This document shows positions 34,272 to 60,979 of a stretch of 64,000 bases of DNA, piece by piece. The notes beneath the pieces were generated by a model. The model had not been told where the DNA came from. It made no database searches and was given only the letters and a program-made list of their open reading frames with translations. This DNA comes from PVC group bacterium (GTDB taxonomy: Bacteria > Omnitrophota > Gorgyraeia > B26-G9): positions 22,660 through 86,659 of the forward strand of contig JAAEQR010000003.1 in assembly GCA_024231215.1 (NCBI GenBank), given 5' to 3'. Positions within the stretch are counted from its first letter, which is position 1; every line of letters begins with the position of its first letter. Position numbers and translations under genes: made by a program.

Positions 34272-34370
34272 AGTTCAGAATCCACCCCATTTTTACAAGC
34301 TACTTAAAAAATTGTCAAATCTAAGCCGTAACTAGCTGCGAGTAAAAGGGATATGTAAAACATGTCCTTA

Positions 34371-34406
34371 CCTTGACAGAAGTATATACCTATGGTATAC
34401 TTTTGA
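34371..34406 (+). promoter_or_regulatory. family promoter cassette, copy A: CCTTGACA, 13-nt spacer, ATGGTATACTTT
   Basis: The -35 TTGACA is at 34373-34378 and the extended -10 TGGTATACT at 34394-34402. This is the same cassette as copies B-E. Confidence 0.7.
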
Positions 34407-34457
34407 GTCTTTTTATTTTACCTAATAAAAATATATAAAAAAACAAGGAGATTTGTT

Positions 34458-37400
34458 ATGATTTCAGTATTAAGTCGTAATTTTTTCTTTAGAACAACCG
34501 CAATTATTTTAATTCAAGCATTTTTATTAATAGACATATCGTGGGCCTGTGGTGGGAGGCTTAATGATATTGATGACAGTAAGGTTTTTGAAGATAACTA
34601 CCTTGCTCCTTCCTTAATTATTAATCACTCTGACTTTTCAAGTTATTTTTCTAGTCCAGAAGATATTACTGCGAATCAATTCAGTAGTTTAAGTTCTGCA
34701 GAAATCGAAACCTTAACATATAAACTTGGCCTAACTCTTACCAATGAAAAGCAAGCAGCAAGAGAGATTGAAGAGATTAAGAAAGAACAATTTAAAATAA
34801 TGGATCAGTTTAGTGAAGGGTTAGAGAACAAGGAGCAACGTGAAAAAGCTTTGAATCAGGTAGTAAGAGATACCAATAAAGCGATTGATACTTTAAGGGC
34901 TGATTTTGTTGTGCAGGAGAGGGCAAAAGCTGAGTTAAAAATTAAAGCAGAAGAGTTGAAAATAGAAGCAGAAATTGCAAAGCTAAAATTAGGCAAAGAG
35001 AGAAGAGAAAACTTTGCGAAAGAAGCTCAGCAGGCATATGATCAGGAAATCGCCAAGCTTATTAAAGAAATCAAAGATGCCGCGAAATCAAAAAAAAGAA
35101 AGGCAGAGGAAGAGTATAAGGAACGTGTTAGCAAAATTGAGGAATGTGTTAGCAAAATTAAGGAGGGACTGCTTGAAGGAATATACATATCTGATTCGCT
35201 GGCTCAGGATATTGAAAAAATCAAGCAGGATACAAATGCCAGGATCCAAAAGATAGCTGCGGATATGCGTACTGAGAAGGGCTTTTTAAGCGATACAGTC
35301 AGGGGTATTATTATTGGCGTGTTTAAAATCGCCTGGTATTGGCCAAAAGGTAAGATAGCTGTTTTAAAGATTGAATTGAGCACTCATGAAGGTTATGATC
35401 TTAGCAAGTCTCGTAGTAGATTTAAGGCAGAAGTTAAGGAAATTAATAAATCTGCCAAGGCAGAGATAGAAGCGGTTAGGGACGGAAAAGATAAAAGGAC
35501 ACATAAACTTAAAGAAGAGCTTGATCAGGCTGGTTTAAATATTGAAAAAGATAAAACGAGGCTGGAACAGCTGGAATCAGATAAGAAAAAACAGCCGGAA
35601 ACAATTAGACAAGAAGTAGAAAACGCAATAAAAGAAGCTCAGAAAGATGCAGCTTTAAAAATCCTTAGCGGTCTTCAAGGTGATGAATATGTAGAACTCA
35701 GGCTGAAGGCTTTAGAAACTGTTTTGCCGCTGGTTAAATTATACGAAGACCGCCAGTCAGAAGGCCAGATGGACATGAGAATTGAAAGTAGGGAGGAGTC
35801 CATTGCCGCTTTATTTTTACGCGCGTATCGGGAAGGGCTTAGCGCTATTTCGATTACCGATGCTAAGCAATTACCTTCTCCTGAGGCGGCTAAGGCACAG
35901 CAGATTGTGAACAGACATATCAAGCGTTCTCGAAAGAAAAATGAAGATAAAAGAAAACCGCTGAAATATATTCCGGGAATCGAATTAGTCGTGTCTCTGG
36001 ACGGAGAGAAAGTTCCGGTAATTATCTATCTGCCGGAAAATTCACGTAACTTGGCGAACGATAAGACTGTTCAGGATTTGCTGGCGCGTAGAAGACCGTT
36101 TATGTTACAGGAACTCGCCCATATTTTATACGTATATAACGGAAAGATTGCTTTAGCCGATGCTCATAAATCTCTAAAAGCAGCGCAGATATTTTTTGAA
36201 CGCATGGCGGAATTTGTAATTAAAGGCAGGATCCCGTTGCGGTCCGTATTAGGGGTCGTATATTATGAAGGAACAAAGCAAAAATCTGATGAGCCGGACA
36301 GTCCGGAGAAACAGAAGCTGATGGAGTATATCGCCCGGCTTTGCGTACACCATCCGGTTTATAAACAGAGTGAGCTTTTCTTTCTGCCGGGAACTAATTT
36401 CAGCGGTAGTGTAGATCTGGAAAAGGAAAATATGCTCGGCAGCGGAGCGGATCGTCATCCGCATGAAACGAGTTATCGAGATAGGATTTTAAAGGCAGTA
36501 AATTATAAATCGGGATTATGGGAGAAGATTGTTTATGAATATGAGGGGTTTTTAAAAAACGTTTATATTTGGGGTTTAATGATTACGGCAGGTGTAACGA
36601 TTGTTGGGACACATTCACTTATTTTGGCCGGACTTTTTGCGGTGATGTTCTATTATTTGATTGCGACATATCCTGGATCTAAAAAAAGTGCATTAAAACA
36701 ACAGGTGCAAGTAATTCCCCAGGCAGATATTGCGTCAGAGGAAATGATGAAATACAAAGATTGGAAATTTGATCCGGCTAAAATTCCTCAACCCAAACCA
36801 GAAAGCGAAAAGAGTGCTTCTAAATGGGGAAAAGTGATGGAAACCGCAGGAAATATTTTTGATAAACTGGATATATTAGAAAATCTTTTTTATAGAGCGA
36901 CAGCCGGGACTAAGTATTTTGCCGGCAGTTTGAGAGAGCATTTAAATAAAAATAAGATCACAAATAACTTTTTCAGAAACGATTTGAAGCCCTGGCAAAA
37001 ATGGACTTTCTTTATTTCCAGTTTGACAATAAGCGGAGTATTGGCCGGTTGGTTGGCCGGCAGTGCATGGCTCGGAATTAAAATAGGGGCATTAGTCTGG
37101 GGTATTGCAATAGCGTTAAAGATTTTTGTGTACATAACCGATTGGGATATGGTGCTTTTACTTTTTGGATTTGCTGGTAGTGGGATAGCCGGATGGTTCT
37201 TGGGAAAAGACTACCCGTGGCAAGGAGCTTTTATTGGTCTTACCGGGTGGACGGGTTTTTTAAATAGGAAAGGAATAATATCCTTTTTTAGAGACAGAAT
37301 AAGAAAAGAGATTGATTTTTATAAACGTTTTAGGATGCTTGGGCCCAAGGCTGTTTTTATCCGAAAGACTCTGAAATTACAGCAGGATATGGCTAAGGGA

Positions 37401-38723
37401 ATTGTATATGTGAATATGGTGGGAAAATCGTTTGGCCTGAGAAAAATAGAGGTTGTGAATGTTTTGGCTAAACATGGTTTTGAATATGTAAAGATACAAG
37501 ATGCCAGCACATTGGTATTTGCCAAAAAGGACGTGATGAGAAGGATCGGAGCGGAATTTTTGAAAACAGCTTTAGAAAAATCCGGCACTTCCTGGGAGAA
37601 GATGACCGAGACTTTAAATAAGATCACAGAACATTTTGAAAAAATGCTGGTCGAGGTAACGCTGAGCACAGGGAACGGCAGGACACGTAAAATGTTTATC
37701 CCGGATCCGAGAGAAATTGCCGATGATCAGGTTATGTATAAGCTTTACCGGATTATCGCCATGTACAAGGCACAGGGATTAGTTTTGGAAAATCCCCAAA
37801 CCCGTCTGGTGGTTGATGTAAAAGGAGCGGACGGACAAGTCAGACCAGTTACAGCAAACGAATTGGCCTTAGTTATGAATAAATATTTTGACATTGTAGT
37901 ACCCATGCCGGAGGAGGGAAGTACGCCGGTGAAATCCAGGATTAGTCAGGGGGAGGTAAGGATACTGGAAGCTACCGGACAGCTTAATGAACTTTGGGAA
38001 CAAGGGGTTAAATCTTTAGTTTCGATCAACCTTGGTTCGCAGATCAGAGTGATTGTTGCGGAATTGCTCAAAGATGAAAAAATCGGAACAATTCGGGTAA
38101 CCTCTTATCCGACAGAATTAGGGCGTGACCTGATTGATTTTAGCTCCGAGGCCGGGAAATCGGTAGAAAGTTTGATCAGTGATCAGGCAATATTGGAGGC
38201 GGCGGAAGAGATGGGCTTACTGGAAACGATTGCGCGAGAGTTTAATATGGATAAGGAGAGCGTAACCCCTGAGCATATCGGACTGATCGCTGCCGGGCGA
38301 AATCCTTTTAATCAGGAGCAAGAGTTATACCAGCCTGTAGAGGTTAAAAAGTCGACGATGCATATGGGCAGTAAATATTTTGGCGGAGACACCGGGTCTA
38401 AGCTTGAGCGATTAGAGGCTGTGGCCCAGGAGTTATGGAAAAAGATAGATCGCAAAATAGCGGATTTTATCATCAAGCTGGATGCGGATAGAGCTGCGGA
38501 ACCGGGAAAGACCTCTTATCATCTTAGCGGAGAAACAATGACTTTGGATATCGCTAAGTTAAGAACGGAAAATTTGCGCCGGTTTCTTGAAGAGAAAAAG
38601 GCTGAGCATATCGAATTTTCCTGCGGGGAAGACCCCCTATCGGGAAACGCAATAATCGACCATGATTTAGAGCGGTCTTCTGAGATTACCGAACCTGCTT
38701 TGTTGGTTGAAATGGCGATTTAG
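34458..38723 (+). CDS. leader-family protein 1 (1421 aa): signal peptide, K/E-rich coiled-coil region, internal block of transmembrane helices, C-terminal globular region
   Basis: The leader reads …IILIQAFLLIDISWA|CGG…NYLAPSLIINH. The coiled coil spans aa ~90-420, and 6-8 hydrophobic helices lie at aa ~690-950. Confidence 0.7.
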   Translation: MISVLSRNFFFRTTAIILIQAFLLIDISWACGGRLNDIDDSKVFEDNYLAPSLIINHSDFSSYFSSPEDITANQFSSLSSAEIETLTYKLGLTLTNEKQAAREIEEIKKEQFKIMDQFSEGLENKEQREKALNQVVRDTNKAIDTLRADFVVQERAKAELKIKAEELKIEAEIAKLKLGKERRENFAKEAQQAYDQEIAKLIKEIKDAAKSKKRKAEEEYKERVSKIEECVSKIKEGLLEGIYISDSLAQDIEKIKQDTNARIQKIAADMRTEKGFLSDTVRGIIIGVFKIAWYWPKGKIAVLKIELSTHEGYDLSKSRSRFKAEVKEINKSAKAEIEAVRDGKDKRTHKLKEELDQAGLNIEKDKTRLEQLESDKKKQPETIRQEVENAIKEAQKDAALKILSGLQGDEYVELRLKALETVLPLVKLYEDRQSEGQMDMRIESREESIAALFLRAYREGLSAISITDAKQLPSPEAAKAQQIVNRHIKRSRKKNEDKRKPLKYIPGIELVVSLDGEKVPVIIYLPENSRNLANDKTVQDLLARRRPFMLQELAHILYVYNGKIALADAHKSLKAAQIFFERMAEFVIKGRIPLRSVLGVVYYEGTKQKSDEPDSPEKQKLMEYIARLCVHHPVYKQSELFFLPGTNFSGSVDLEKENMLGSGADRHPHETSYRDRILKAVNYKSGLWEKIVYEYEGFLKNVYIWGLMITAGVTIVGTHSLILAGLFAVMFYYLIATYPGSKKSALKQQVQVIPQADIASEEMMKYKDWKFDPAKIPQPKPESEKSASKWGKVMETAGNIFDKLDILENLFYRATAGTKYFAGSLREHLNKNKITNNFFRNDLKPWQKWTFFISSLTISGVLAGWLAGSAWLGIKIGALVWGIAIALKIFVYITDWDMVLLLFGFAGSGIAGWFLGKDYPWQGAFIGLTGWTGFLNRKGIISFFRDRIRKEIDFYKRFRMLGPKAVFIRKTLKLQQDMAKGIVYVNMVGKSFGLRKIEVVNVLAKHGFEYVKIQDASTLVFAKKDVMRRIGAEFLKTALEKSGTSWEKMTETLNKITEHFEKMLVEVTLSTGNGRTRKMFIPDPREIADDQVMYKLYRIIAMYKAQGLVLENPQTRLVVDVKGADGQVRPVTANELALVMNKYFDIVVPMPEEGSTPVKSRISQGEVRILEATGQLNELWEQGVKSLVSINLGSQIRVIVAELLKDEKIGTIRVTSYPTELGRDLIDFSSEAGKSVESLISDQAILEAAEEMGLLETIAREFNMDKESVTPEHIGLIAAGRNPFNQEQELYQPVEVKKSTMHMGSKYFGGDTGSKLERLEAVAQELWKKIDRKIADFIIKLDADRAAEPGKTSYHLSGETMTLDIAKLRTENLRRFLEEKKAEHIEFSCGEDPLSGNAIIDHDLERSSEITEPALLVEMAI

Positions 38724-38770: not shown

Positions 38771-38806
38771 CCTTGACGAAGTATGCCTTATATGGTATAC
38801 TTTACT
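38771..38806 (+). promoter_or_regulatory. family promoter cassette, copy B: CCTTGACG, 13-nt spacer, ATATGGTATACTTTAC
   Basis: The -35 is at 38773-38778 and the -10 TATACT at 38797-38802. Confidence 0.7.
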
Positions 38807-38861: not shown

Positions 38862-41800
38862 ATGGGTATCAATAAGAAATACCTATATCTAAGAATTATT
38901 GCATGTATTCTAATACAGGCGGTTTTGTTTGGTAACAGCGGCTTGATCGGAGTAGTGCGCGCAGAAAACTTCCTGTCGCCGGTTTTAGAAATAAATAATA
39001 AGCTGGTTAAGACTTCGTTTGAAACTCCTCAGGTAAAAAGTCGTCGTTTTGTTCATAATCTGGATGATTTATCAAAACTTTCCCGCCGCAAAAGAGATGA
39101 TCTCGAAATAAATGTTCTTAAAAGAATTAGAAATATTAATCTCAAAGGTTTTAATTTTTTATCAAGGGAGGAGCAGGAGAATTTCATTTTTGTTGATTTG
39201 GACTTTGCGGAGTATGTGTTAAAGACTATCTTTACCGATAAGATTAAAGAGGACATGTCTCAGAAGAACGTATCTTATGAAATCATAACAAGGATTATAG
39301 TAGACATGTTTATTCTTTTAAACAAGGTGTTAGAACAACAAGAAGGACAGGATAATACCTATATCGCATGCACTAATTATACTTTTTCTAAAGATAGAAA
39401 AGGACAGACATATGTACTCACGGTTAATTTTGAGAAAAAAGGAGTGGAAGCTAAAATATCAAAATTTATAGCCGAAGAAATTGATGCAGAAATGCCGAAT
39501 ATTGTCTCAGTGTCCGGGCCGATAGAAAAAATCACTGGAAATAAAAGTATAGATGTTAGTTTTTACGGGGTTTCAAAAAATAACAAAGTGCTTACCCCAT
39601 CGGAAATAACCCGAGCAGTGAAGAAGCTGCCGCCGAACGCAGAGAATATAGATATTTCGGAATTAAGAATTGCGCATAAAAGATTACTTAATTTGGCCAG
39701 AGATCGTTACGAAAAACAGGATATTTTAAAAGAAATAACCCCAGCCATAGAGAGGAAAATAAAAACAGGTATTGTTGCGGAAGGGACATCTTCTTTTACC
39801 CCGATTACTGAGAAGGCTTTTGTGGGAAAGATTATTTGCGCGGAAGTGGTAGAAAAAGAGAAAAAGCCGACATATCCTTTAGTTTCATATTATTCGGAAA
39901 CATTGAGGAAAGATCTGAGATTATTAGATAATGCTATAAATACGGCTATGTATAAGTATGAAGGTATAGATATTAATACGGTTCATCATTTTTTGCAGGA
40001 TGCCTTTGCGTTTGCAAGACATGATTCTCGGGAAACACGCAAGGCTCCGACAGCTCAATTTTTATCGCATCTTATGGATGAGCGGAAGGCAGTGCGGGTT
40101 AGAATTCGAAAGGAATTATTGGAGATTATTACATATACGCCGATGTTAAATAAAGACAATGAGCCAAGAGAGATTTCGGAAATCATGGAGGAAGAGCTAG
40201 CTGAGTTAGCGGAACTGCAAGATTACGAAGACAATATGTATATCTGGGGAGAACTGAACAGGCTTAATCAAGAGGATTTGCTATGGGATAACATCATGTC
40301 TCAAGCAAATGAAATTGTGGGTAATATATATCAATATATAGAAGGAGTGGACCCTGAACCTAAAAATGAAAAAGAGCAGATGGCTTTAGATGCGATTGAA
40401 AATGCGAGGAAGGCAGTCCCAACAGATACTCAAATTGGGTCTATGGTCGATACTGTATTACAAGATCTGCCGCGGCAGTTATTTGCCTGGTTAAGAAAAT
40501 ATGATTGTTCTTTACATGAGGCGTTTTTTCGGTCTATGCAACCTATTGTAGACCAGTTAGTTCAAGCTCAAGAACATACGTCGCAAATGAAAGGAGGGCT
40601 TTCTTTAAATCTCCATACCGAACTTTGTACTTTTGTGGATACTGTATTGTTGGAACTGGGAGAGTATGAATCGCGGCATGTAGTGGTACATAATGACTCG
40701 GAGAAGGAGCCATTTATATTATATGTGCCGGGAGACCTAGGAGGGCCGGAGGAATATTTGCGTTTTCGGCGTCTTTATCCGAATATGGTAGGGATTGTAG
40801 TTAAAGAAGGAGCTAAACATTATGCGGTAATGGCCGGAGATCACGGATTCCCGGTGATTAATAAAATTGATTTAATTGAAATGAGCGAAGGAAAATTGCC
40901 GTTAGAGCTGGTGTTAAAAAAGAAAACTAATGGAATTATGCGTATTAGCAGGGGAGGGAAAGCGTTTTTATATATAAACCCTTCATTGAGGGATACCCTT
41001 GAGGCGGAAACTATTATAAAAACAGCGCAGGCAATTAAAATATTGTGTGAAGCTAATATAGATTTAGAAGGAGAAGATGGGAAATTAAAGACGTATGATG
41101 GAGTAGAAGCGCCTGAGATAATGATGAATTTGGATATTGCCGAAGATGCGGAAGACTTGCCGAGCCGGGTAATACGGAAAATAGGTCTTTATCGTACAGA
41201 ATATGAGTATGAACGTCATGGAGAGTTAACAGAAGAAGCATGGTATAAAATTTTTAAGAAAATTGTTAAAGATTCAGAGGGCGATTTTATCGCTGTACGT
41301 TTACCGGATAGAAAAGTATCCGGAGAAGGTGGGGATATAAAAAATCCTAAAGCTTTTGGAAAAAGTAATCTTGAAGGACTTGATTTTTTGCTTGATGAAA
41401 GAGCTAAGGGCAGGCGAATCTCAACGATAATATTAAGGGCCCTTATGAGAGTATATGCAGAAGACGGAGTCGTAGGTGCTCTTTTTCCCATGGTTTCGCA
41501 AGAAAGAGCCGAAGGAATAATCGACTTTGTCGAAGAAATAAAAGAGAATTTAATCTTTGAACAAAAAAATAAAAATAAGCGGGAAGCTTTGGAAGAGGCG
41601 TTAGACAGCTTTTCCGTGGGAGCGATGTTTGAAACTCCTCAGGCTTTTGAATTTAAAAAAGAGCTTATGGAGATTTTTGATTTTGTAAGTTGGGGGAGTA
41701 ATGACTGGAAGATGGCTTCTTCCGGGAAGTCAAGAGGTGCTCAGGGAACGACCAAAGAATTGATTTCATTTACGCCTGAGGTTGTAAAAACCGCATTAGC

Positions 41801-44377: not shown

Positions 44378-44413
44378 CCTTGACAGGTTGTATTTCATAT
44401 GGTATACTTTACC
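44378..44413 (+). promoter_or_regulatory. family promoter cassette, copy C: CCTTGACA, 13-nt spacer, ATATGGTATACTTTAC
   Basis: The -35 is at 44380-44385 and the -10 TATACT at 44403-44408. A GC-rich hairpin, GGGCCG…CGGCCC, at 44437-44456 lies in the 5'UTR. Confidence 0.7.
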
Positions 44414-49218: not shown

Positions 49219-49258
49219 CCCCCCTTCCGGGAATATCCGGGAGGGGGTTTTTGTTTTG
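49219..49258 (+). terminator. intrinsic terminator (CCCCCTTCCGGG…CCGGGAGGGGG followed by TTTTTGTTTTG)
   Basis: An 11-12 bp GC stem plus a T-run lies after protein 5. Confidence 0.9.
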
Positions 49259-49380: not shown

Positions 49381-49413
49381 TTGAAAAAAGCCAAATCATA
49401 TGGTATACTTTAC
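49381..49413 (+). promoter_or_regulatory. family promoter cassette, copy D: TTGAAA, 17-nt spacer, ATATGGTATACTTTAC
   Basis: The -10 TATACT is at 49404-49409. The -35 is a weaker TTGAAA. Confidence 0.6.
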
Positions 49414-52400: not shown

Positions 52401-55019
52401 ATTATTATCCGGTTAATAAATATTCCGATAAGTGCAATCGGATTACTTATACAGTATCCGGCAAAATTGTTGATTAAATTCATGGTAAAAATAGTCATCA
52501 CTCATCGTCAGATACAAGAATCAGCACGGATTGAGCAGCTGATTATTGCCGCAAGGAAAAATATCGAAGAGGCTGTTAGTTTGTATTCTAAGGGTGATAA
52601 ACCAACCGCGGAAGTAAAAATAGATGCAGCTTTAGATACTTTTGGAGATGCAAAACAGACGCAGGCTAAAATTTTGCAGGCTTTTAAAGATAATGGTTTT
52701 CTTACGGAAGATGACACAGAGTTGAATAGCTTGTTTGATCAGTTGGCACAAAGCACAGATTATGCGCAAAAAGAATCTGTGAAGGCGGAGATTGTACAAA
52801 AGATAAGCATGAATCAGCCGGATCCTCTTCCGAGCGTAGACGTAATACTTGAAACAATAATTCCGGCGGCAGAGCAAGCATATATTGATAAGAATTGGGC
52901 TAGTTTGGAAGCTGCCCTGGATGTCTTTTTGAATTTTTATGAAAAGGTAAAAGAGCCTAGGGAGGAAGAGATTGTATTAAATGGTTTTGCGGGTGCTTTT
53001 CGTGAACATGATATATGGAGCGATACCCTGGATGTATTATTTGAAAAATTAAGAAGTCCGGGGCAGAATTATGAGCAGATTAGAAATGATATCAAAAGTT
53101 ACATTCAGAAAAAAATGAGTGGCACAACTCCGGAAGTGCCTGATTTAGATCAGGCACTTACTGCAATAGCAGAAGCGACGGGGTTATATGCGGATAAAAA
53201 ATATGAAGAAGCCGAAGCTGAATTACTTAAAGTATTGCAGTTTTATGCATTAAATACAGTAAGCGAACGAGAGCGTACAATTGTCATGGATAATATTAAG
53301 CCTTTGTTGCCTACAGAGGATAAGCAGTTAGAAGCGTTTTTTAGATCAATTGCCGATCAAAATACTCCGGATGAAGATAAACAAAGTTTGATAGCTGCGA
53401 TTATAGAAAAAATAACTATTTATCAGAAGTCCCAAGTTGATCCGACTCCGGAAATGCCGGATTTGAATAAAATACAGAGGGATGTGAATAAGGTCGTTAA
53501 TTTATATAAAGAAAAGCAAGATAATACTGCGGAAGAAATATTAGGATCGATACTGAATCTGGCAATAACTCACAAAGATAATGCAGAGGTTATAACTCCA
53601 ATATCCAATATGCTGGTGACTGCGGGATTATGGAATGATGCGGATAAGCAGTTGTTTTCGGAATTATTGCAGAAAAATGACTTGCAGGGGATAAAAGATA
53701 AGATTTCTGCAATCGTATTAAAACATAGAAATGAAATAAGATCAGCAACCGAATATATTAATACTGTAAAAGTTTTTTGTTACGAAAGAAAGTTTAATTG
53801 GGAAGTTGCGTCACAGTCGATTGATTCAGCCTTAACTCTTTATGAGGAAAATGCATGGGTGAGAGATTCAATAGCAGTAGCTTTAACCATGGAAAAAGCA
53901 TTGCTGGATAATGTTACCCGAAATGAATTAATTGGGAAGTTTAATAATGCGATAAAAAATAATGAAAATACAACCGGGATAAAGGGTGAGATAAAAGCGG
54001 CTATAAAAACTTATGCAACAGCGCAGTTAGAGAAAGTAGAGAAGGTAAAGCAAGTTGCGGCGAAAGATAAAGTTAGCAGTTTGACAATAATTATGCGTAA
54101 CAGCTATTACGCGAATGATCTGGATCTTCCGATACAGGCACGGGATGATTTGTTAGCAACATATGTTAAGGTTATGCCATTGCGGAGCTTAATAAAAGAA
54201 CAAATTATAGAAGCTGATTTAATGACAGAAGAGGATGTGAATAGATTATTCGGAGCTTTGGATAGGGTTTCTTCTGATGATGAAATAAAGGATGCACTAG
54301 ACGCTATCGAGAATAATATGTTAACCCATGTGTTGGAGCAACGGCTTGATAAGGCGCAGACCACTATTATACTTATAGCTGATCGTTATGAGGTGGCGGT
54401 AAAAGATGAAGACTATAAGAAAGCAGAGGATCTTTTGAATTATCCTTTGGCTGTGGCGTTAGATTGTAATGAGCATGCAGAGGCTATCTTGACGGAACTG
54501 GAAAAACAGAAATTAGTAACTACTAATGAAGTTAAAGGACACTTCCGGGACTATGTGAATTCCAGGGATGCCGGGTATCTCGATCTTTTAAAACGTAAAA
54601 TAACCGAAGCACAAAAAGCTCTTAAACAGATAGAAGAGCCGAAACAGCCGGATGATGGACAGCAGAATGATATTATTCAGTTGAAAATGAAAGTGGTAAA
54701 CTTTATTGCTGAGGCATGTGGTAATTATTATGTAACTGAAGATTTTGACGCGGCAGGAAAATCTCTTAATGAAATATTGAATGCATATATGGAACATCCT
54801 GAAATACGTGATTTTATCACTGAAATCATGGAGAAGAATGACTTGATGAACGATACTATTAAGGGGTTATTTAAAGACTTAGGAGTCTTGTCCGATAATA
54901 ATATTTCCGAACAACAGATTGATAGTATAAGAGGAAAGATACAGGATGCTGTAAAAGCAAATGTAAAAGCAGTAAAAAGAAATAAAAAGATGCTGGAATT
55001 AATTGGCATGGCGATTTAA
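49476..55019 (+). CDS. leader-family protein 6 (~1847 aa): signal peptide plus a giant K/E-rich α-helical protein built of ~105-aa degenerate repeat modules
   Basis: The leader reads …FVLIQAFLLMNVSGAFA|GLA…TTLAPNIAISH. The ATG at 49476 follows an AAGAAGGAG RBS; the ORF track's GTG at 49449 is less likely. A recurring (D/E)-x-x-LF-x-x-L signature occurs roughly every 100 aa, and P-(E/D)-x-P-D-L module boundaries fall near nt 52818, 53130 and 53448. Confidence 0.7.
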   Translation: MLSTKNNQKIGFKLISFVLIQAFLLMNVSGAFAGLAVAQNSVENQTTLAPNIAISHNALQGMFMVEQAPVIKVPESLIDVDYFMKTVRRAYLTRKVNAVKKAEDLETAMLGIVEKYTSADTDKVRSAIITKVRKAGKELPIYKEVEKMLTKKSLHMEMIKHVLKKKQLGEKVFTANSAGELLKTFGVDEETQQQAINDAKQTIGLGVKLTRKELKNILTQIPSKEKIPSLAIEYLDNKYKIKEWWGVQLFKGIWMCKIGQMSWPVLGVKIVRFVKENDLLSKFWGKFVAWWEGSFKSFIINYIKGIKFQYSQGSGYNFETARNWLDTLLRLYIDKSDREDAEIDQAQTREYIFDQMRKKGIVPEEYKLLFASMVSKQPVPENIEGFAKTASEKRLTNEDIKKLTIMLDKVIDRAEIAISQYELSGNSRTDEKAWDMLDKRFEVYLSVVEKPLITVFDMCSKYRIISDMVFMMFKNSGLLLENDKYLFSRIGDKNIFEDVKIQIRERIEDNRKILSGKLDKNDYTITTAGNNLKIILQYILMIKQTAFADGKVDLYEAKNWFGKLFDFYKQSTPESRRDIIKRLKRAELILSDKDEALFSELLKSKPGVTEKIIIAMTKNVKTKRAGESKRQKLIKQILSDKYRYVSKINAQVSDETVLKSVDKKELIGVIDRFVRAQNLIMEADKVYLAAATPEEYAVAGEILEDVLSIYKLTKYRMERNIIFKMLIEARLVTREHKGLFDLLYAGSATAVEDIKDAVTAQVQQRKKDLEESFIEIREAVNKSVELYEKAAELSKEQIDEFLNEKMAKVISDFTQEYSFEQVLESIRRMETGEKIDFLVDLYEDDKARPDQKKRIFEILKEVGLLDGFWVNVHNFFSKLGLTKRFAAIKERLKETILGKVYSVLGEKKLKLGGQAIVYAKAAQALDPALKIYVKEPLARQFITERLEAANLIDNSIQMKAMFWFLAGAKPFEPTNIIIRLINIPISAIGLLIQYPAKLLIKFMVKIVITHRQIQESARIEQLIIAARKNIEEAVSLYSKGDKPTAEVKIDAALDTFGDAKQTQAKILQAFKDNGFLTEDDTELNSLFDQLAQSTDYAQKESVKAEIVQKISMNQPDPLPSVDVILETIIPAAEQAYIDKNWASLEAALDVFLNFYEKVKEPREEEIVLNGFAGAFREHDIWSDTLDVLFEKLRSPGQNYEQIRNDIKSYIQKKMSGTTPEVPDLDQALTAIAEATGLYADKKYEEAEAELLKVLQFYALNTVSERERTIVMDNIKPLLPTEDKQLEAFFRSIADQNTPDEDKQSLIAAIIEKITIYQKSQVDPTPEMPDLNKIQRDVNKVVNLYKEKQDNTAEEILGSILNLAITHKDNAEVITPISNMLVTAGLWNDADKQLFSELLQKNDLQGIKDKISAIVLKHRNEIRSATEYINTVKVFCYERKFNWEVASQSIDSALTLYEENAWVRDSIAVALTMEKALLDNVTRNELIGKFNNAIKNNENTTGIKGEIKAAIKTYATAQLEKVEKVKQVAAKDKVSSLTIIMRNSYYANDLDLPIQARDDLLATYVKVMPLRSLIKEQIIEADLMTEEDVNRLFGALDRVSSDDEIKDALDAIENNMLTHVLEQRLDKAQTTIILIADRYEVAVKDEDYKKAEDLLNYPLAVALDCNEHAEAILTELEKQKLVTTNEVKGHFRDYVNSRDAGYLDLLKRKITEAQKALKQIEEPKQPDDGQQNDIIQLKMKVVNFIAEACGNYYVTEDFDAAGKSLNEILNAYMEHPEIRDFITEIMEKNDLMNDTIKGLFKDLGVLSDNNISEQQIDSIRGKIQDAVKANVKAVKRNKKMLELIGMAI
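52500..54900 (+). repeat. in-frame degenerate tandem repeats of ~312-318 nt (104-106 codons) inside the protein 6 gene
   Basis: Three modules are aligned, starting with QPDPLPSVDVILETI, TPEVPDLDQALTAI and TPEMPDLNKIQRDV. Further diverged copies carry the …ExxLFxxL… motif. Confidence 0.5.
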
Positions 55020-55088: not shown

Positions 55089-56639
55089 ATGAAAATAATT
55101 ACAAGTATAATCATACAGATATTTTTATTTACTACCTTGTGCTTTGGCGCGGGAGCGAATAGCTATCTTTCCCCTGAGATATCCATGGCTAGTGAAGGAG
55201 TAAAGGACAGGATATCTCAGGTATCCGAGCAAGATAATACTGCGTCTATTTTTCCTACCTATGATGTGATTAAAGAACTCAAGAAAGAAAATTATATTTC
55301 AGGTAAAATTGGCCAGCATGATTTTGCCGGAACAGTAAGACGACGGAAAGGTTTTTTATTTATCCATAATGTATATAAGCCTCAGAGCAAGAAAGATATC
55401 CGATGCTGGGGCGGTGTTTTATTTAAGGTTCCGTATGAAATAATACCTTCTGAAGACGAGGATAAAGGTGTGTTTTTGAAAATGCGTATAAAAGATGTAT
55501 CTAAAAACGGAAAGTTTTCTCTTACCTTGCAATGGCCGGAATTAAAGAATGATAGTTATGTGCGGCTTGTCTATGATACGGATAAAACAGGGGAGATCAC
55601 TATAAACTTATCTAAACTGGTTAAGGACAGAGGATTGCCGGCTGGGGATCAGTTTTATGTACAGGTATTGCCGGTTGGTCATAATGCTAAAGTAGAAATA
55701 GATGAATTTGTTTTAGAAAATATTCCGGTGCGGCAGGAAGAAAATGCTGTGTATAACCGGCATATATACCCTATATATAAAGAAGGGGAATATCCAATTA
55801 ACTTAACTTCGTATCAGGCGGAACAAATTCGCGTGTTTTTGTCTGCAATTTACTCGATTTCAGAAGAGAGCAAAAGGAAAGATGTTTCCAAAGTAGAAAT
55901 AGGTGGTGAGTTGTTTGATTTGCTTAATCAGATAATGGAAGAGCAGGAGAGTTTATGTCTTTTAATGGAATTGGGATATGAAGAGCCGCTGTTGAAAATA
56001 TTAACAGTATTAAAAAAGAAGTTTTTGCGTATGTCTAACATAGCAGTAAAGGTTGAAAAGCTAAAAATAGAAATGCAGAGTAATTCTCGAATGTTAAGAG
56101 TAAGAAGACTGGAAAAAGAGTGGTCTTATATTAATAATCAGTTCGAAGAAAAAAATGCGCAGTACACTGAGACTTTACGCCAGCATCGGGTATTTGGTTC
56201 ACCTCATCCGGGAAGCTATGATGAGATTATGTCCTTGTTTGAAATAAAGAATCATTTGTTTGGAGAATTGAATCGGACAAAAGATGAGTTATTTCGTAAG
56301 GTGGTTGAATACTATAATCATTGTCGTAACTTTTGTAAATTTAAAAGGACCTTAAAGCAGAAGATGGAAGAGATAAATACCATATTAAACAGCAAAGAGG
56401 AGGCTAATATATATTCGAATCCGGAATTATTAGCAAAAGAATTTAAAAAATATTCGTCTTTGATGGGCTCTCCTTCGAAGGCGAGCCGCCTGACTGCCGA
56501 AGATAAAAAATCTGTTATAAAGATGGTTATGTCTTATATTTCTTCGCAATCCGATAGACGCGAGGAAAATATCACTTCGGTGAAATCAATTAAAGAGATT
56601 TCTCGTCCTGCTTTATCTTTCGTGGAATCAGCAATATAG
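55089..56639 (+). CDS. leader-family protein 7 (516 aa), function unknown
   Basis: The leader reads MKIITSIIIQIFLFTTLCFGAGA|NSYLSPEISMAS. Confidence 0.65.
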   Translation: MKIITSIIIQIFLFTTLCFGAGANSYLSPEISMASEGVKDRISQVSEQDNTASIFPTYDVIKELKKENYISGKIGQHDFAGTVRRRKGFLFIHNVYKPQSKKDIRCWGGVLFKVPYEIIPSEDEDKGVFLKMRIKDVSKNGKFSLTLQWPELKNDSYVRLVYDTDKTGEITINLSKLVKDRGLPAGDQFYVQVLPVGHNAKVEIDEFVLENIPVRQEENAVYNRHIYPIYKEGEYPINLTSYQAEQIRVFLSAIYSISEESKRKDVSKVEIGGELFDLLNQIMEEQESLCLLMELGYEEPLLKILTVLKKKFLRMSNIAVKVEKLKIEMQSNSRMLRVRRLEKEWSYINNQFEEKNAQYTETLRQHRVFGSPHPGSYDEIMSLFEIKNHLFGELNRTKDELFRKVVEYYNHCRNFCKFKRTLKQKMEEINTILNSKEEANIYSNPELLAKEFKKYSSLMGSPSKASRLTAEDKKSVIKMVMSYISSQSDRREENITSVKSIKEISRPALSFVESAI

Positions 56640-56667: not shown

Positions 56668-57936
56668 ATGAGTAGTAGATTTGGAGTAATATTTAAAATC
56701 ATTGTAATAGTACTTGTGCAGGCATTTTTGACGTTAGATCTTGCTTGGGCTGCGCAGGGGAATCTGCGTTCGTTTCAAGCGGATGATACTATTTCTCCTT
56801 ATATCCAGGTCGAAAATATTTCTTTGCAGGCCGGATTTTCTGTTTTATTTACTAAGGTTGCTGTGAAAGATATTGCTCAGATTGAAACTATTGAGAGTAT
56901 AGAGCAAAACACTACTAACTCATCCATCCTATCTCAAATCAGAAATTGGATGGAAAGATTTTTTCTAAAAATCACATTTTCTTTAGGACAGATATTGTTA
57001 GGGTGGACTGGACTTGTTTGGGCGCAGGAGCATATAGAAGAATATAACGGCCCTTATTTTGATAACGTATGGTCGTATTGGTGGTATCGGACATGTAATT
57101 TTTTTACAAATCCAGTTGTTTTTAAGACTGTATTGGTTATCTCAGGTGTAGCAATGGTTTTTTTAGTCGCGAGTTTTGTTGTAGCTAACCTGATGACAAG
57201 TAAAAAAGATAGAAGCAATCTGGGAATGGTGATATTGATTGGTTTGATTGGTTATTTGGTTCTAAGCAGTGATATAGGCAATAAAGTACAAGACTTTTTC
57301 TTTCCCGATGTTATGCCTGATATGAAGACTTCGACACAAAAGAGTATTATGGAGCACAAATTAGGACTCCCTGGAGTAGGCATACAGACAAATGCGGTGC
57401 ATTCGGAAGTAATACAAGAATTCACCTCAAAAGGAAAAACAAGGAAAAATGTAATTATAAACGGAAAGATAGTAGGAGATAATATTCCTCAGAAGAGTTT
57501 TACACTTGATCAGAATGAGATTGTCTTGGCTGTATTGTTCATGCTTGCAGGGATTTTTTTAATTGATCATGCAATAAACAAAAATAAAAGAGGTCAGAAA
57601 ACATTAATAGATATATCTTTTGCTTTCTGGGGCCCGATAATAGAGGAGATAATTGAGATATTGAAAGCGTCATCTCAATCTGCAGGCCAGCTGGTAACGA
57701 TTAATGAATCAGACATAGCTGATTTACCATCAGAGACTGAGACTGTGTTGGATCAGTCAGGGGTGTTTTTCTCGGATAAGAATTCTGCCCAGGGAGAGCT
57801 TCAGCTTTATATGGAACAATTCGGGGCGCTTCTTTATCCTACAAACTGGGATGATTTTCGAAAAGCAGAACAGGTGCATCGTAACCGGCTGAATAATTGT
57901 AGTACATCATATGTTTTGCTGGAACAGGCTGTTTAG
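56668..57936 (+). CDS. leader-family protein 8 (422 aa): signal peptide plus an internal transmembrane-helix block
   Basis: The leader reads …IVIVLVQAFLTLDLAWA|AQG…ISPYIQVENIS. Hydrophobic helices lie at aa ~150-200 and ~285-305. Confidence 0.65.
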   Translation: MSSRFGVIFKIIVIVLVQAFLTLDLAWAAQGNLRSFQADDTISPYIQVENISLQAGFSVLFTKVAVKDIAQIETIESIEQNTTNSSILSQIRNWMERFFLKITFSLGQILLGWTGLVWAQEHIEEYNGPYFDNVWSYWWYRTCNFFTNPVVFKTVLVISGVAMVFLVASFVVANLMTSKKDRSNLGMVILIGLIGYLVLSSDIGNKVQDFFFPDVMPDMKTSTQKSIMEHKLGLPGVGIQTNAVHSEVIQEFTSKGKTRKNVIINGKIVGDNIPQKSFTLDQNEIVLAVLFMLAGIFLIDHAINKNKRGQKTLIDISFAFWGPIIEEIIEILKASSQSAGQLVTINESDIADLPSETETVLDQSGVFFSDKNSAQGELQLYMEQFGALLYPTNWDDFRKAEQVHRNRLNNCSTSYVLLEQAV

Positions 57937-58011: not shown

Positions 58012-58046
58012 CCTTGACAAGCCTGCCTATATATGGTATACTTTAA
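58012..58046 (+). promoter_or_regulatory. family promoter cassette, copy E: CCTTGACA, 13-nt spacer, ATATGGTATACTTTAA
   Basis: The -35 is at 58014-58019 and the -10 TATACT at 58037-58042. Confidence 0.7.
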
Positions 58047-58096
58047 AACCATTTTTAATGTGTAATTTATTGGGATAATTTGAGTTATGAATTTTA

Positions 58097-60730
58097 GTGA
58101 AAAACGGGGTGCAGGTTTTGTTAGTAAAACATTCTAAAATATTGATTCTTACTAAGCTTTTTGTATTGCTTCTGGTGCAGGCGATGTTGATGACAAATAT
58201 TGTCTGGGCTGGAGGGTGGGAAGTCTTATGTCCAGATACCAGAGAAATGCTTGCTCCTACTCTTCAAATCAATAGCACTGTGATACAGGATAGTCTTGCT
58301 GCATTTAACCCTGAACATCCAACTAATCTGAAATATCTTTCCACAGAAGATGAAGTCTTTAAACTGTCCGAATATGTAAAACAACGTGTTCGGGAACTTG
58401 GATACCAGAATAGGGAGATAGATAAAATATCTAATAATTTGCTTGATCTTTTTCTATCTCAAAAAGATAACGGAGGAAGTGCAAGTTTATTGAAATTAAA
58501 GCAGCAGTTGGCAGTTTTGAAAGAATCAAAAGATAGTTTTCCGGCAGAAAGATTTGAAAATCAGGAGATGCAAATTATAATCCAGGTGATGGATATGATT
58601 ACTGCGGTTATCAAGCCTACTTATGATGAATTTGAGGGAATGTTTTTAGAAGATGTATTGAAAAATAAAAAGGCGCAGGGACTAGGCTATACGCAGTTGT
58701 TTTGTATTTTAGCCGGAGCCATCGGCTTGGAAGCATTTCCCGCATCGACAATGTATAATGTGGAAAATCTGGATAAGAAGTTTAATATGTTGAATTATGT
58801 CCGACTTATCACAGGAAAATTTGTTCGGGTCGATCTGATTAATACTCGATTACTGATAAAGGGGCCTTTTCTTTTAACGGAGGAATATTATATTAGAGAC
58901 AATTACTTTATCCCTTTGGAAAGTTCTGCAGATAAATCTTTGTACTCGTGTATTCGTATAGAGTCTTTTTCTAAACTACCAGCGTATATTTGGGATGTCA
59001 AAGGAGCTTTGGCCTATAGGAAGTTTAGCAAAGAAAAATATAAAGATGAGGAGAGTGTTTTAAGAAAGTTGGAACTTGCTAAAATAATCAAGATTTTTCT
59101 AAGAGCTAAAGCAATAGACCATGATGATTTATTAGTGCATTTACACTTAGCTAATATTTATGCTTTGACTGGAATTTATCAAAAGTCGGTTGAATACATA
59201 AGCACGGCAATTCAATTGACCAAACATATTTTTCCCCGAAAATTTGTGGCTGATTTATATCAATTTCGTGGGGAACTATATTTAGAAATGAAACGGAATC
59301 AAGAGGCAAGAAAAGACTTTGTTCAGGCGATTGAGTTAAATCCATTGTTAGAAAAGGAGATTTTAGAATGCTGGAAGGCTGAAACAAAGAAGCCATTTGC
59401 TTCGGCATTGAATAAAAACAGTAAGCCGGTAGTTAATATTGATGATTTAGTGCCGGCAATTGAACTGCCTGGCGCAAAGGGGAGGATTCTAAGCCACAAA
59501 GACAATGTACTATTGTTAGCAAAAGGTAAGATCCCAAAGGTAGGTTCCGGAAAATTTCGGGATAATGCCCTCAAACTTAAAAGGGCAAGCAGTTTTTTAA
59601 GAGAATATTATAAAAAAGAAGATAAATTTGGTGCTAAAGCTGAAATGCTTAAGAAAATCAGTATATCCGGAGTAGATATGAAAACCAATTTATTATATTA
59701 CGATCCTGTGTATAATTTATGTGTGCCGGCTCATATAGTCAGAAGAGCCCAACTGATTGAATTCTCCATGAAGTTTCTTGAACAGTGTGATGTAAAAACA
59801 GATAATGGTATTCGTCTCTTAGCTAAATATATTGACCAGGCAATTAAATTTTTTGTTAAATATGAACAACTTAAAAAAGAGGTCAGGAATAATCCGACAG
59901 ATTCAGATGCTATGTATGAAGCTTTGTTGCCCTTGACTAGGCTATATGAGAACAGGAAGCAGGGAAATATTTTTTCCAAAAAGGCGATGAGAAAAGTGCT
60001 GGCCGGCCTAATAGAAAAAGATAATATTATCGAACAGAAATTGAGCAAGAAAGTTGAGACGGCTGAACGAAAAGTAAAGAAAATGATAATGAATTTGGAA
60101 AAACAAATGCCGAACTTGCTGGGGTATCAAATCCGGGATAAGATTTTAAAAATTACTCCGTTATGTGAAAATATTGGCGAGGACCTGGACCAGGCTGGGA
60201 AGTTTGATGAAGCAAGAAAATATTATTTGGAGGTTGTACGACTGCTTAAATTATCCGAGTTGGATTTGGGTGCCTGGCCGGTAATGTGCCAGAAGAGAAT
60301 TACTTACTTTTTACTGGAACATGGGTTGTTTATTGAACTTATTGAATTGCTTGGTATATTTTGGGATCCGGATGAATTTATCCGGGACATTTCTCAGTTG
60401 CATGAAACAGAATCCGGATATTTGAAAAATATAGAGGGGAAAGAGAGAGCAGAATATTTGTTAGATCAACAGGGGCTGTGGAAAAATATTATAGAAGGAG
60501 ATCATTCTATTTTATGGAATGAGCTTTATTATCAAATGTCGGTACGGAAATCTCAAGCTAGTTTTGCTTTCGCTTTGGAAATTGAGTATCTTCAGAAAAA
60601 GGCAGAAGGATTATATGAAAAGTTATGCCGAAAATTAAGAGAATTGGATGCTCAGCATGAAAGAGGTAACGCGTGGAGAGAGAACGAGTTAGATTTATCG
60701 AATGATATCTTAGTGGAACAGGGAGTATGA
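58097..60730 (+). CDS. leader-family protein 9 (877 aa): signal peptide plus an α-helical/TPR-like body
   Basis: The leader reads …LFVLLLVQAMLMTNIVWA|GGW…MLAPTLQINS. The start codon appears to be GTG. There are TPR-like helices around aa 340-420. Confidence 0.65.
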   Translation: MKNGVQVLLVKHSKILILTKLFVLLLVQAMLMTNIVWAGGWEVLCPDTREMLAPTLQINSTVIQDSLAAFNPEHPTNLKYLSTEDEVFKLSEYVKQRVRELGYQNREIDKISNNLLDLFLSQKDNGGSASLLKLKQQLAVLKESKDSFPAERFENQEMQIIIQVMDMITAVIKPTYDEFEGMFLEDVLKNKKAQGLGYTQLFCILAGAIGLEAFPASTMYNVENLDKKFNMLNYVRLITGKFVRVDLINTRLLIKGPFLLTEEYYIRDNYFIPLESSADKSLYSCIRIESFSKLPAYIWDVKGALAYRKFSKEKYKDEESVLRKLELAKIIKIFLRAKAIDHDDLLVHLHLANIYALTGIYQKSVEYISTAIQLTKHIFPRKFVADLYQFRGELYLEMKRNQEARKDFVQAIELNPLLEKEILECWKAETKKPFASALNKNSKPVVNIDDLVPAIELPGAKGRILSHKDNVLLLAKGKIPKVGSGKFRDNALKLKRASSFLREYYKKEDKFGAKAEMLKKISISGVDMKTNLLYYDPVYNLCVPAHIVRRAQLIEFSMKFLEQCDVKTDNGIRLLAKYIDQAIKFFVKYEQLKKEVRNNPTDSDAMYEALLPLTRLYENRKQGNIFSKKAMRKVLAGLIEKDNIIEQKLSKKVETAERKVKKMIMNLEKQMPNLLGYQIRDKILKITPLCENIGEDLDQAGKFDEARKYYLEVVRLLKLSELDLGAWPVMCQKRITYFLLEHGLFIELIELLGIFWDPDEFIRDISQLHETESGYLKNIEGKERAEYLLDQQGLWKNIIEGDHSILWNELYYQMSVRKSQASFAFALEIEYLQKKAEGLYEKLCRKLRELDAQHERGNAWRENELDLSNDILVEQGV

Positions 60731-60937
60731 GGGAAGTTACAGGTAAAGAGTGGCAAGTAAAGGGTGACAAATTACAAGATTCAGCATATTTTTACTTATC
60801 CCATTGTAAATAATTTGGTTATGTAATAAAGATAGTGTTTGGTATTATAGTTAAATAAGTCCTTGATTTTGTATTTTTAATTAGTTATAATATTTTTTTA
60901 AGTAGGTGGCTTTTTGTCTCTAATCAAAACATAAAGA

Positions 60938-60968
60938 GGTCCGTAGGGACCTGTTATTTTTTTATAAG
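60938..60968 (+). terminator. intrinsic terminator (AGGTCC-GTAG-GGACCT followed by GTTATTTTTTT)
   Basis: A 6-bp stem plus a T-run. It closes the nine-gene block. Confidence 0.6.
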
Positions 60969-60979
60969 GAGGGAAATAG

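Follow-up and report, generated by a model that had tools for sequence, protein, structure and literature searches.

A signature located at both ends of the polypeptide was found to be shared by eleven proteins with unrelated cargo that are encoded in a 64 kb stretch of DNA from a bacterium of the Omnitrophota (assembly GCA_024231215.1, contig JAAEQR010000003.1, positions 22660 to 86659; this whole stretch of 64000 bp is hereafter called the window). Three elements make up the signature: a near-fixed helix with a conserved Gln in the N-terminal leader (the Q-core), a short motif built around L-[AS]-P behind it (the N-motif), and a short peptide at the free C-terminus (the C-tail). In a minority of members, an ordinary signal peptide takes the place of the Gln-containing helix. 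The finding is real, statistically solid and present across many Omnitrophota metagenome-assembled genomes (MAGs). Its function we infer only: the signature probably marks the cargo for an export or targeting route.

The three elements and the proteins that carry them

A sequence-only reading of the window had described a block of nine consecutive + strand genes (34290 to 60970) for proteins that share a leader and differ in everything else. The nine open reading frames (ORFs) were confirmed at the starts it had given, and the idea of a common leader module on unrelated cargo was supported. Each leader has a basic n-region and a hydrophobic stretch that includes Gln (LIQAFL, IIQMFL, LVQAML and similar), and the nine conform to a near-fixed helix, (K/R)-I-I-A-x-x-L-I-Q-A-F-L-x-x-(D/N)-x-(A/S)-W-A, followed by G/A-G. 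A positive n-region, a core of 13 residues, Asp/Asn and A/S-W-A are arranged as in a Sec signal peptide with a site for signal peptidase I. An A-x-A cleavage site had been assigned to the leaders in general; a clear A/S-W-A is present in five of the nine, and the sites in the other four are weaker. From the charge of the n-region, the hydrophobic core and the A/S-W-A site, the members are predicted to be exported via Sec.

The N-motif is located 12 to 27 residues past the Gln in the nine leaders and has the consensus [SD][TC]-L-[SA]-P-x-[LIV]-[QN]-I-[NSD]-x3-[LF]-[QK]-x2-F. It is longer than had been described, as the strand-like part is followed by a helix-like h-x3-F part (h, hydrophobic residue), and all nine strings quoted in the sequence-only reading were correct. 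A six-frame motif scan of the window identified two further L-[AS]-P genes, with plain signal peptides, at 15252-16244 (MLSPQIQISH) and 33021-34271 (LLSPRLSLQQ).

The third element is a free C-terminus of the form L-[IV]-[EG]-Q-[AS]-I-COOH, located on a Pro/Ser-rich, linker-like stretch in the examples read. All eleven motif-bearing proteins share this type of tail, and tail and motif are more tightly coupled to each other than to the Gln-containing helix. The earlier description of nine genes holds, and what it missed were the two additional members outside its interval, the C-tail, and the coupling of the tail to the motif. The eleven member genes, all on the + strand, are as follows.

15252-16244, +: outlying member, 330 aa; ordinary signal peptide without a Q-core; N-motif NMLSPQIQISHKAVRSEI (nt 15369-15422); C-tail LVEYAI (nt 16224-16241)
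33021-34271, +: member, 416 aa, agmatine/peptidyl-arginine deiminase (PAD)-like cargo (PF04371, E 4.6e-9); ordinary signal peptide; N-motif NLLSPRLSLQQEHFLRIF (nt 33132-33185); C-tail LIEMAI (nt 34251-34268)
34458-38723, +: member, 1421 aa, internal transmembrane (TM) blocks at aa ~706-740 and 869-916; Q-core leader (Q20, ISWA); N-motif nt 34596-34649; C-tail LVEMAI (nt 38703-38720)
38862-42191, +: member, 1109 aa, PEP-utilizers_C cargo (PF02896, E 2.2e-23); Q-core leader (Q19); N-motif nt 38967-39020; C-tail VHEYAI (nt 42171-42188)
42203-44296, +: member, 697 aa, weak DHH/pyrophosphatase-like cargo; Q-core leader (Q24); N-motif nt 42335-42388; C-tail LVLQAI (nt 44276-44293)
44481-46349, +: member, 622 aa, orphan cargo; Q-core leader (Q16, FAWA); N-motif nt 44562-44615; C-tail AISISI (nt 46329-46346)
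46364-49183, +: member, 939 aa, patatin-like phospholipase cargo (PF01734, E 2e-15; NCBI MCP4648507.1); Q-core leader (Q16, FAWA); N-motif nt 46481-46534; C-tail LVNIAI (nt 49163-49180)
49476-55019, +: member, 1847 aa, long cargo without a Pfam domain; Q-core leader (Q21); N-motif nt 49611-49664; C-tail LIGMAI (nt 54999-55016)
55089-56639, +: member, 516 aa, orphan cargo; short Q-core leader (Q10); N-motif nt 55161-55214; C-tail FVESAI (nt 56619-56636)
56668-57936, +: member, 422 aa, three to four further TM segments; Q-core leader (Q18, LAWA); N-motif nt 56785-56838; C-tail LLEQAV (nt 57916-57933)
58097-60730, +: member, 877 aa from GTG 58097, TPR cargo (TPR_2, E 8e-14); Q-core leader (Q28, VWA); N-motif nt 58244-58297; C-tail LVEQGV (nt 60710-60727)

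The 330 aa member stands 18 kb from the block and the PAD-like member is directly upstream of it. The start of the 1847 aa protein at ATG 49476 is preceded by a ribosome-binding-site-like sequence, AAGAAGGAG, and agrees with the database protein; a start at GTG 49449 adds nine residues (1856 aa). The database version of the TPR member starts seven codons after GTG 58097 (at 58118) and has 870 aa. Among the cargo assignments made from the letters alone, PEP-utilizers_C and patatin proved solid and TPR was added for the last gene, while the DHH call is weak (E 1.2e-4, under the Pfam cut-off; NCBIfam Mn-pyrophosphatase, 2.6e-7). Four cargos of the block had no Pfam match, no homologue of the 622 aa orphan was found outside its leader, and the 330 aa outlying member matched no Pfam or NCBIfam family.

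Conservation beyond chance and beyond a generic signal peptide

The C-tail was present in 11 of 11 motif proteins and in none of the 24 other + strand ORFs of at least 100 aa in the window (Fisher p = 2.4e-9). When the helix was written as a degenerate DNA pattern, h-h-[IV]-Q-x-[FM]-L-x-x-[DN]-h-x-W-A, it matched the window five times, against 0.00 matches expected from 100 shuffles, and a six-frame regular-expression scan found the Q-core confined to the nine genes and a few matches in non-coding reading frames.

All-against-all BLASTP of the members confirmed that they lack global similarity, with alignments confined to the first ~100 residues or fewer. Codon choice differs synonymously among the copies of the leader, and conservation is therefore at the protein level and not due to recent DNA copying. 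Synonymous codon differences are seen in the tail as well, each of the three stop codons occurs and the DNA past the stops is unrelated, indicating that selection acts on the tail as protein; a conserved DNA element as the origin of the tail was rejected on the same grounds. The PAD-like member has orthologues with 69% and 53% identity that both keep the tail. The former also keeps the motif and the latter is a fragment without its N-terminus. A homologue with 23% identity has neither motif nor tail.

The leader is not the generic signal peptide of the organism, as the other window proteins with signal-peptide-like N-termini (judged by eye, without a predictor) have none of the three elements. 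These are a TraF_2 barrel, a patatin-Omp85 protein, a FIST protein and an 845 aa protein, and the two of beta-barrel outer-membrane type end in F (TraF_2) and Y (patatin-Omp85). A finding of the leader on secreted proteins at large had been named in the sequence-only reading as the observation that would speak against a special role, as had a failure of the motif to recur beyond the cluster.

Distribution beyond the window

Neither objection stands, and the motif does recur. A profile of the nine leaders, compared with 1.84 billion representative proteins, matched 299 clusters at E <= 1e-3, including 14 at E <= 1e-10. The matched proteins range from 55 to 6383 aa, and the match nearly always falls at residues ~5-65. 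A word-indexed search of 5.8 billion proteins with the leader alignment returned no match, which is a limitation of the index given that the exhaustive profile search found the 299 clusters. Because the profile included helix and N-motif, independent confirmation from its matches comes from the frequency of the tail only; the tail ends 81 of the 120 matches of at least 300 aa, and many of the untailed ones are probably cut by contig ends. Ten matches that were looked up are proteins of Omnitrophota or PVC MAGs, or are unnamed in the source, and any name given is either 'hypothetical' or taken from the cargo.

A DNA pattern restricted to the helix, h-h-h-[IV]-Q-x-[FM]-L-x-x-[DN]-h-x-W-A, was also run against one genome each for 185579 species and found 46 loci. 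About 33 of these are true gene starts, of which 29 are in MAGs labelled Candidatus Omnitrophota (~15 different MAGs) and three in MAGs labelled Planctomycetia; the remaining ~13 are short junk reading frames in unrelated taxa. Viral contigs, which serve as a negative control, gave six matches to the helix pattern, all spurious. The N-motif and the C-tail, though absent from the DNA pattern, nonetheless recur in the true genes, and the leader is conserved far past the cluster, in ~33 genes from at least 15 Omnitrophota MAGs as well as in the profile matches. Among 116 complete ORFs at the scan loci, 19 have leader and tail, three leader only, five tail only and 89 neither (p = 1.9e-14). Two of the three scored as leader only in fact end in IQTAI and IEQAI, and two of the five scored as tail only have the motif behind a signal peptide without Gln, with one more having a degenerate motif. 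When all proteins of these loci were compared with those of the window by BLASTP, the leaders alone aligned. In the collections searched, the signature is almost restricted to Omnitrophota.

As in the window, leader genes are often found in tandem (loci L019, L025, L035, L038, L040 and L041 of the scan). One leader-and-tail protein with three to four TM segments (P0073, identical to L038 1137-2474) is labelled 'signal peptidase II' at NCBI. At L039 (3633-6882), a member appears to be split into a 210 aa part with the leader and an 876 aa part with the tail, which could be due to a frameshift or an assembly error.

Sequence logos were built from the best 150 profile matches, 143 of which have the motif. 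In the helix, K/R at -8 is found in 140 of 143, followed by I-I-(A/S)-h-(I/V)-L-I, Q (122/143), A, F (133/143) and L (126/143); the distal part reads h, h, D/N (137/143), h, A/S, W (106/143), A (117/143), then G/A-G. In the N-motif, for which 142 of the 143 matches were entered, L is found in 139, P in 138 and the final F in 103. The last residue of the tail is Ile in 78 and Val in six of 84 tails analysed. The distance from Gln to motif in the profile matches is narrow, mostly 22 to 28 residues with modes at 24 and 27.

Cargo

Sixty full-length members match 34 Pfam families, most of which occur in one to four members each. The families include S-adenosylmethionine (SAM) methyltransferases, GGDEF, HEAT, a trehalose-synthase-type glycosyltransferase, NDK, AAA+, PEP-utilizers_C, radical SAM, HD, PGM/PMM and PGI, and members without any further hydrophobic segment still carry PHP, HD or a fusion of PGM/PMM and PGI. 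The cargo, in the window and in the wider set, is thus of independent families and often of a cytoplasmic type. The same unusual repertoire of domains occurs in the giant membrane proteins of Omnitrophota, according to passages of two genome papers (bioRxiv 10.1101/2023.11.21.568195; 10.64898/2026.06.07.730766).

The leader-tagged patatin at 46364 carries GGGPKG, G-N-S-A-G and D-G-M motifs, and a GGSIRC segment is found in the deiminase-like member (all read by eye). As these motifs are present, both look catalytically competent.

Comparison with known sorting signals

No sorting-signal model or related sequence in Pfam, NCBIfam or the PDB matched the signature, in keeping with the sequence-only reading, which could match it to no known sorting signal. 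Full-text literature searches and the retrieved passages of the two Omnitrophota genome papers (10.1101/2023.11.21.568195; 10.64898/2026.06.07.730766) gave no description of it. As far as the searched libraries show, the signature is undescribed.

Several classes of signal were compared with the leader and rejected. A lipobox ([LVI][ASTVI][GAS]-C with Cys at +1, signal peptidase II) does not fit a leader that ends in W-A and G/A-G; Cys replaces Ala in 14 of 143 leaders but stands after Trp, and the Cys of some C-L-S-P motifs is far downstream of the h-region. The Tat signal (S/T-R-R-x-F-L-K) was excluded because the n-region has the form K/N-x-x-F-K/R, in which one basic residue stands at -8 and RR is not a consensus feature, and because no Tat model matched. 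The type IV pilin or class III signal (cleaved between G and F/M in G-F/M-T-L-I-E, ahead of the hydrophobic stretch and with Glu at +5) is in no leader, and there was no N_methyl match. For the TPS domain, ESPR, YSIRK and KxYKxGKxW, the window proteins gave no match at E <= 0.01 (Pfam) or E <= 1 (NCBIfam). A double-glycine leader (L-x3-E-L-x2-I-x-G-G, cleaved after G-G, without a hydrophobic Sec core) is unsuitable since Glu is missing at -8 and the leader has a full hydrophobic core. Gly after W-A is merely the plurality residue (71, 69 and 56 of 143 at three positions). Counting back from G-G at +11/+12 places h(+5) at -7 and h(+4) at -8, where Leu and Glu are needed, and counting from +12/+13 places Asp/Asn at -7.

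At the C-terminus, the type IX secretion system (T9SS) C-terminal domain (CTD), a beta-sandwich of ~70-100 aa, was rejected as none of its models matched any of ten window proteins or 60 further members, and conservation is confined to the last ~6 residues. PEP-CTERM, LPXTG and GlyGly-CTERM do not apply to members that end in L-[IV]-E-Q-[AS]-I without a terminal TM helix or basic cluster, and the outer-membrane beta-signal (terminal F/Y/W) does not apply to members that end in Ile or Val, whereas the barrels of the window end in F and Y.

The systems that appear nearest in working principle are accessory Sec, PEXEL/RXLR and tags of the T9SS CTD kind, none of which joins an N-terminal and a C-terminal element. 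Accessory Sec (SecA2/SecY2; GspB) uses a special signal peptide with required h-region residues and an AST domain formed by the first ~20 mature residues. There, as here, unusual h-region residues and a short segment at the start of the mature protein select a route other than the default. However, it is a Gram-positive system for glycosylated serine-rich adhesins, with a KxYKxGKxW n-region, Gly in the h-region, no C-terminal tail and machinery encoded beside the cargo, and it has no sequence similarity to the signature by Pfam or NCBIfam. The members were rejected as accessory Sec substrates since KxYKxGKxW did not match, the h-region residue is Gln and not Gly, and no secA2 or secY2 was found in the window or the loci.

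The PEXEL motif of Plasmodium and the RXLR motif of oomycetes are host-targeting motifs behind Sec-type signal peptides, found on hundreds of unrelated parasite proteins and leading to delivery beyond the producing cell. They resemble the signature in that a signal peptide is followed by a short motif at a constrained, short distance on unrelated cargo, but they belong to the eukaryotic secretory pathway, the motifs are RxLxE/Q/D and RxLR, the signal peptide has no conserved sequence and there is no C-terminal tail. The T9SS CTD, PEP-CTERM/exosortase, GlyGly-CTERM/rhombosortase and LPXTG/sortase systems have in common with the signature a lineage-restricted tag on unrelated Sec-exported cargo, and their dedicated machine need not be encoded nearby. 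The tail of the signature differs from these tags in being ~6 residues with a free carboxylate, without an ~80 aa beta-sandwich or a TM helix and basic cluster, and in being accompanied by a second, N-terminal element. In format (few residues, a hydrophobic end, a free carboxylate, an apparently flexible linker) it is like the C-terminal peptides read by PDZ or TPR domains, such as PTS1 -SKL/PEX5, -YxF of outer-membrane proteins/DegS, and the non-polar C-termini read by Prc/Ctp, though L-[IV]-E-Q-[AS]-I differs in consensus from -SKL, -YxF and the Prc/Ctp ligands.

The TonB box of TonB-dependent receptors and colicins is an extended segment near the mature N-terminus that begins with an acidic or polar residue, continues with Thr and a hydrophobic residue, and pairs as a strand with its partner. 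The likeness is a resemblance only. In the N-motif, Pro is nearly invariant (138/143) and a helix comes next, and the cargo consists of soluble enzymes.

Within the phylum, the giant 'archaeovorin'-type genes are comparable, as their signal peptides or TM segments are followed, in the passages retrieved, by domains of a cytoplasmic type (methyltransferase, GGDEF, PEP/PPDK, AAA, radical SAM, PGM, HEAT/TPR), and small PilZ genes adjoin them. The giants have at least 10000 aa, whereas window members have 330 to 1847 aa; other leader-bearing proteins reach 6278 and 6383 aa. The retrieved passages of the giant-gene papers (10.1101/2023.11.21.568195; 10.64898/2026.06.07.730766) do not include a conserved leader, a post-leader motif or a C-terminal tail. 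Giant genes are recognised, in the part of the preprint of West-Roberts et al. that was retrieved, by a length of at least 25 kb, a type II secretion system (T2SS)-like locus upstream and small PilZ genes downstream. When these criteria were applied, PilZ genes were found at six other loci and not in the window, and no T2SS genes were found in the window or the 8 kb loci.

Structure, topology and neighbouring genes

The hydrophobic residues of the N-motif are spaced i, i+2, i+4, i+6 and then i, i+4, i+7/8. As this spacing fits both, the motif reads as a predicted extended segment followed by an amphipathic helix. AlphaFold2 run on the leader alignment predicted a confident helix at residues 3-35, coil over the motif, and a short helix at the h-x3-F stretch. 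This gives no support to the earlier suggestion of a beta-strand at the motif that would serve in docking or as a donor strand. Further TM segments were predicted in ~60% of members, the first often at aa ~90-150, and none in ~40%.

Small PilZ genes (PF07238, ~120-145 aa) immediately flank leader genes at six Omnitrophota loci (L006, L019 with two copies, L028, L034, L040, and L044 with two copies), and no PilZ gene is present in the block of the window. PilZ genes also adjoin the giant genes of Omnitrophota, according to retrieved passages (bioRxiv 10.1101/2023.11.21.568195; 10.64898/2026.06.07.730766). Upstream of leader genes in four MAGs (L025 752-2446, L015, L040 and L042) is a gene for a conserved ~560 aa protein, which has a GGFHT(D/E)GI motif in its C-terminal part and either a signal peptide or a TM segment. 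It matched no Pfam family, and its placement may reflect only orthologous synteny.

Genomic setting of the window

The window is a chromosomal stretch of ~38% G+C that is strongly GC-skewed and one-directional. The skew is constant and very strong (0.13 to 0.32 per 2 kb over 1-64000), and virtually all genes are on the + strand except two. The proteins are recorded at NCBI as MCP46485xx (locus tags GY853_003xx) of 'PVC group bacterium' on a 103999 bp MAG contig, and the relatives found in the later searches were nearly always labelled Candidatus Omnitrophota. Scans of all 64 kb for Rfam families and tRNAs found none. Housekeeping genes include those for MnmA, ThiF, ABC-F ATPases, a DEAD-box helicase and Rex and serC/serA-like genes, and a PFOR gene begins at 60980 and extends past the window end. 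Genes for a diderm envelope are represented by the patatin-Omp85 protein and the TraF_2/PorP-like barrel. Three features outside the member genes are as follows.

14124-15078, -: two genes, the sole convincing minus-strand genes in the window, divergent neighbours of the outlying member at 15252
25925-28153, +: patatin domain fused to an Omp85-type barrel, with the layout of a PlpD-like type Vd autotransporter; ordinary signal peptide, ends in GQTFY
31353-32825, +: TraF_2/PorP-SprF-like outer-membrane beta-barrel (PF13729, E 1.4e-31), directly upstream of the block

One of the two minus-strand genes encodes a dual-specificity/tyrosine phosphatase (PF22741, PF22785), a type that also occurs in polymorphic toxin systems. 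The window holds two patatins that differ in export, one fused to Omp85 (25925-28153) and one leader-tagged (46364). Before the block, the order is a sigma-54 activator (29851-30852), an ACT-domain protein (30853-31266) and then the TraF_2 barrel.

Four sigma-70-like promoters with an extended -10 (TTGACA, TTGACG or TTGAAA, 17 nt, TG, TATACT) are located in the intergenic gaps just before leader genes (34373-34401, 38773-38801, 44380-44408 and 49381-49409), and a strong hairpin-plus-T terminator follows the patatin gene (49220-49247). The promoters in the gaps and the terminator suggest that the leader genes form several transcription units rather than one operon. The count of promoter matches over the whole window was no higher than chance. 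Control by the adjacent sigma-54 activator was rejected, as sigma-54 promoter matches were no more frequent than expected by chance.

Possible function of the signature

We give a probability of about 0.5 to the reading that the signature is a modular address code for a dedicated step at or after Sec export, by which heterogeneous cargo would be sent to the cell surface, the medium or a prey cell. The helix would bring the protein into or through the inner membrane via the Sec route, and a dedicated component of the envelope, encoded elsewhere than beside the cargo genes, would then read the two short end motifs. This component would hand the cargo to the cell surface, the outside of the cell, or an attached prey or host cell, and not leave it in the periplasm. 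Because its sequence is fixed far beyond the needs of Sec, the helix may well have a specific membrane partner; a fixed helix with Gln in mid-membrane and Asp/Asn towards the outside suggests that a partner protein in the membrane could recognise the helix itself, either ahead of cleavage or in place of it. The tail, as a free C-terminal peptide, would suit receptors of the PDZ or TPR type.

Omnitrophota are widespread, ultra-small, uncultivated bacteria that are thought to be predators or parasites. A tentative proposal, which we consider somewhat unlikely in this full form, is that the signature serves as the address code for an Omnitrophota export pathway not yet described, by which enzymes of a cytoplasmic type (PGM/PGI, NDK, radical SAM, GGDEF, AAA+, methyltransferases and phospholipases) would leave the producer for attached prey or host cells or for a metabolically active extra-cytoplasmic compartment, with both ends of the protein being read and the code being common to the giant proteins.

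Several results count against an address code. The sequence-only reading had looked to neighbouring genes for an export or sorting apparatus, and no conserved machinery was found beside leader genes at 33 other loci, where the neighbours are mostly housekeeping genes. The TraF_2/PorP-like barrel was rejected as a partner, since no homologue is located near leader genes at those loci. Covariation between motif and tail was absent over 84 proteins (best z = 3.15 among 108 column pairs), and an AlphaFold2 model of the full PAD-like member (alignment of four sequences) had a mean predicted local distance difference test (pLDDT) score of 48.6, with both termini below 50, which is too poor to judge a pairing of motif and tail. 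Even and odd numbers of additional TM segments were equally frequent (24:24, by a crude hydropathy count) and do not place the C-tail on one side of the membrane. Cleavage, export and localisation of the members are predictions from sequence. Radical SAM, NDK and PGI enzymes have no substrates in the periplasm, and either act elsewhere or have a topology that was wrongly predicted.

An unlikely alternative to sending the cargo onward is that it is kept in the envelope, with the helix as an uncleaved anchor that binds a partner membrane protein through Gln and Asp, the motif and tail docking the two ends on a periplasmic or envelope scaffold, and the family, like the giant membrane proteins, forming part of a large envelope assembly. 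The 18 residues from K/R(-8) to A(+10) are sequence-specific and of membrane-spanning length, the distance from helix to motif is fixed, and the further TM segments of ~60% of members, often beginning at aa ~90-150, would suit such an arrangement. So would the agreement of the domain repertoire with that described in passages on the Omnitrophota giant membrane proteins (10.1101/2023.11.21.568195; 10.64898/2026.06.07.730766), and the small PilZ genes that flank leader genes at six loci as they do giant genes. However, A/S-W-A plus G/A-G is a textbook signal-peptidase-I site that is itself conserved, ~40% of members, and the majority in the window, lack any other hydrophobic segment, and the members with an ordinary signal peptide still have motif and tail. 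This last point also tells against the view, which we regard as distinctly unlikely, that helix and motif do no more than send very long or hard-to-export proteins to a dedicated Sec-type translocase similar to SecA2/SecY2, with no later step. The anatomy is like that of accessory Sec, in that an unusual h-region residue is combined with a segment at a fixed distance past the cleavage site, and SecA-like domains are described inside Omnitrophota giant proteins in retrieved passages of one preprint (bioRxiv 10.1101/2023.11.21.568195). Such a route leaves the free C-terminus unexplained, and of the elements this has the tightest coupling to the motif; no second SecA or SecY was found in the window or the loci.

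The signature might also lack a dedicated function, the ends having been inherited and spread by duplication or domain shuffling, either as a habit of the lineage (a house-style signal peptide) or as a tag for degradation or quality control. The frequent tandem genes, in the window and at the six other loci named above, fit duplication, and the failure to find machinery is as expected on this explanation. We consider it improbable, as three short elements are conserved while synonymous sites and all cargo sequence have fully diverged, the elements have been kept over many MAGs of the phylum and are attached to Pfam families of independent origin, and other secreted proteins of the same genome are without them. 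An address code read at or after Sec export is the explanation that we prefer.

Databases currently label the members as hypothetical or by the domain of the cargo, and in one case as signal peptidase II, and the signature provides a correction to this annotation. It could be used for phylogenetic profiling, or for structure prediction of peptide and receptor, to find the machinery. If both ends of the protein are read, this would be a sorting principle absent from the described bacterial secretion systems. One hidden Markov model together with a C-terminal pattern picks out hundreds of candidate exported proteins, giving a predicted secretome or effectorome for the whole phylum.

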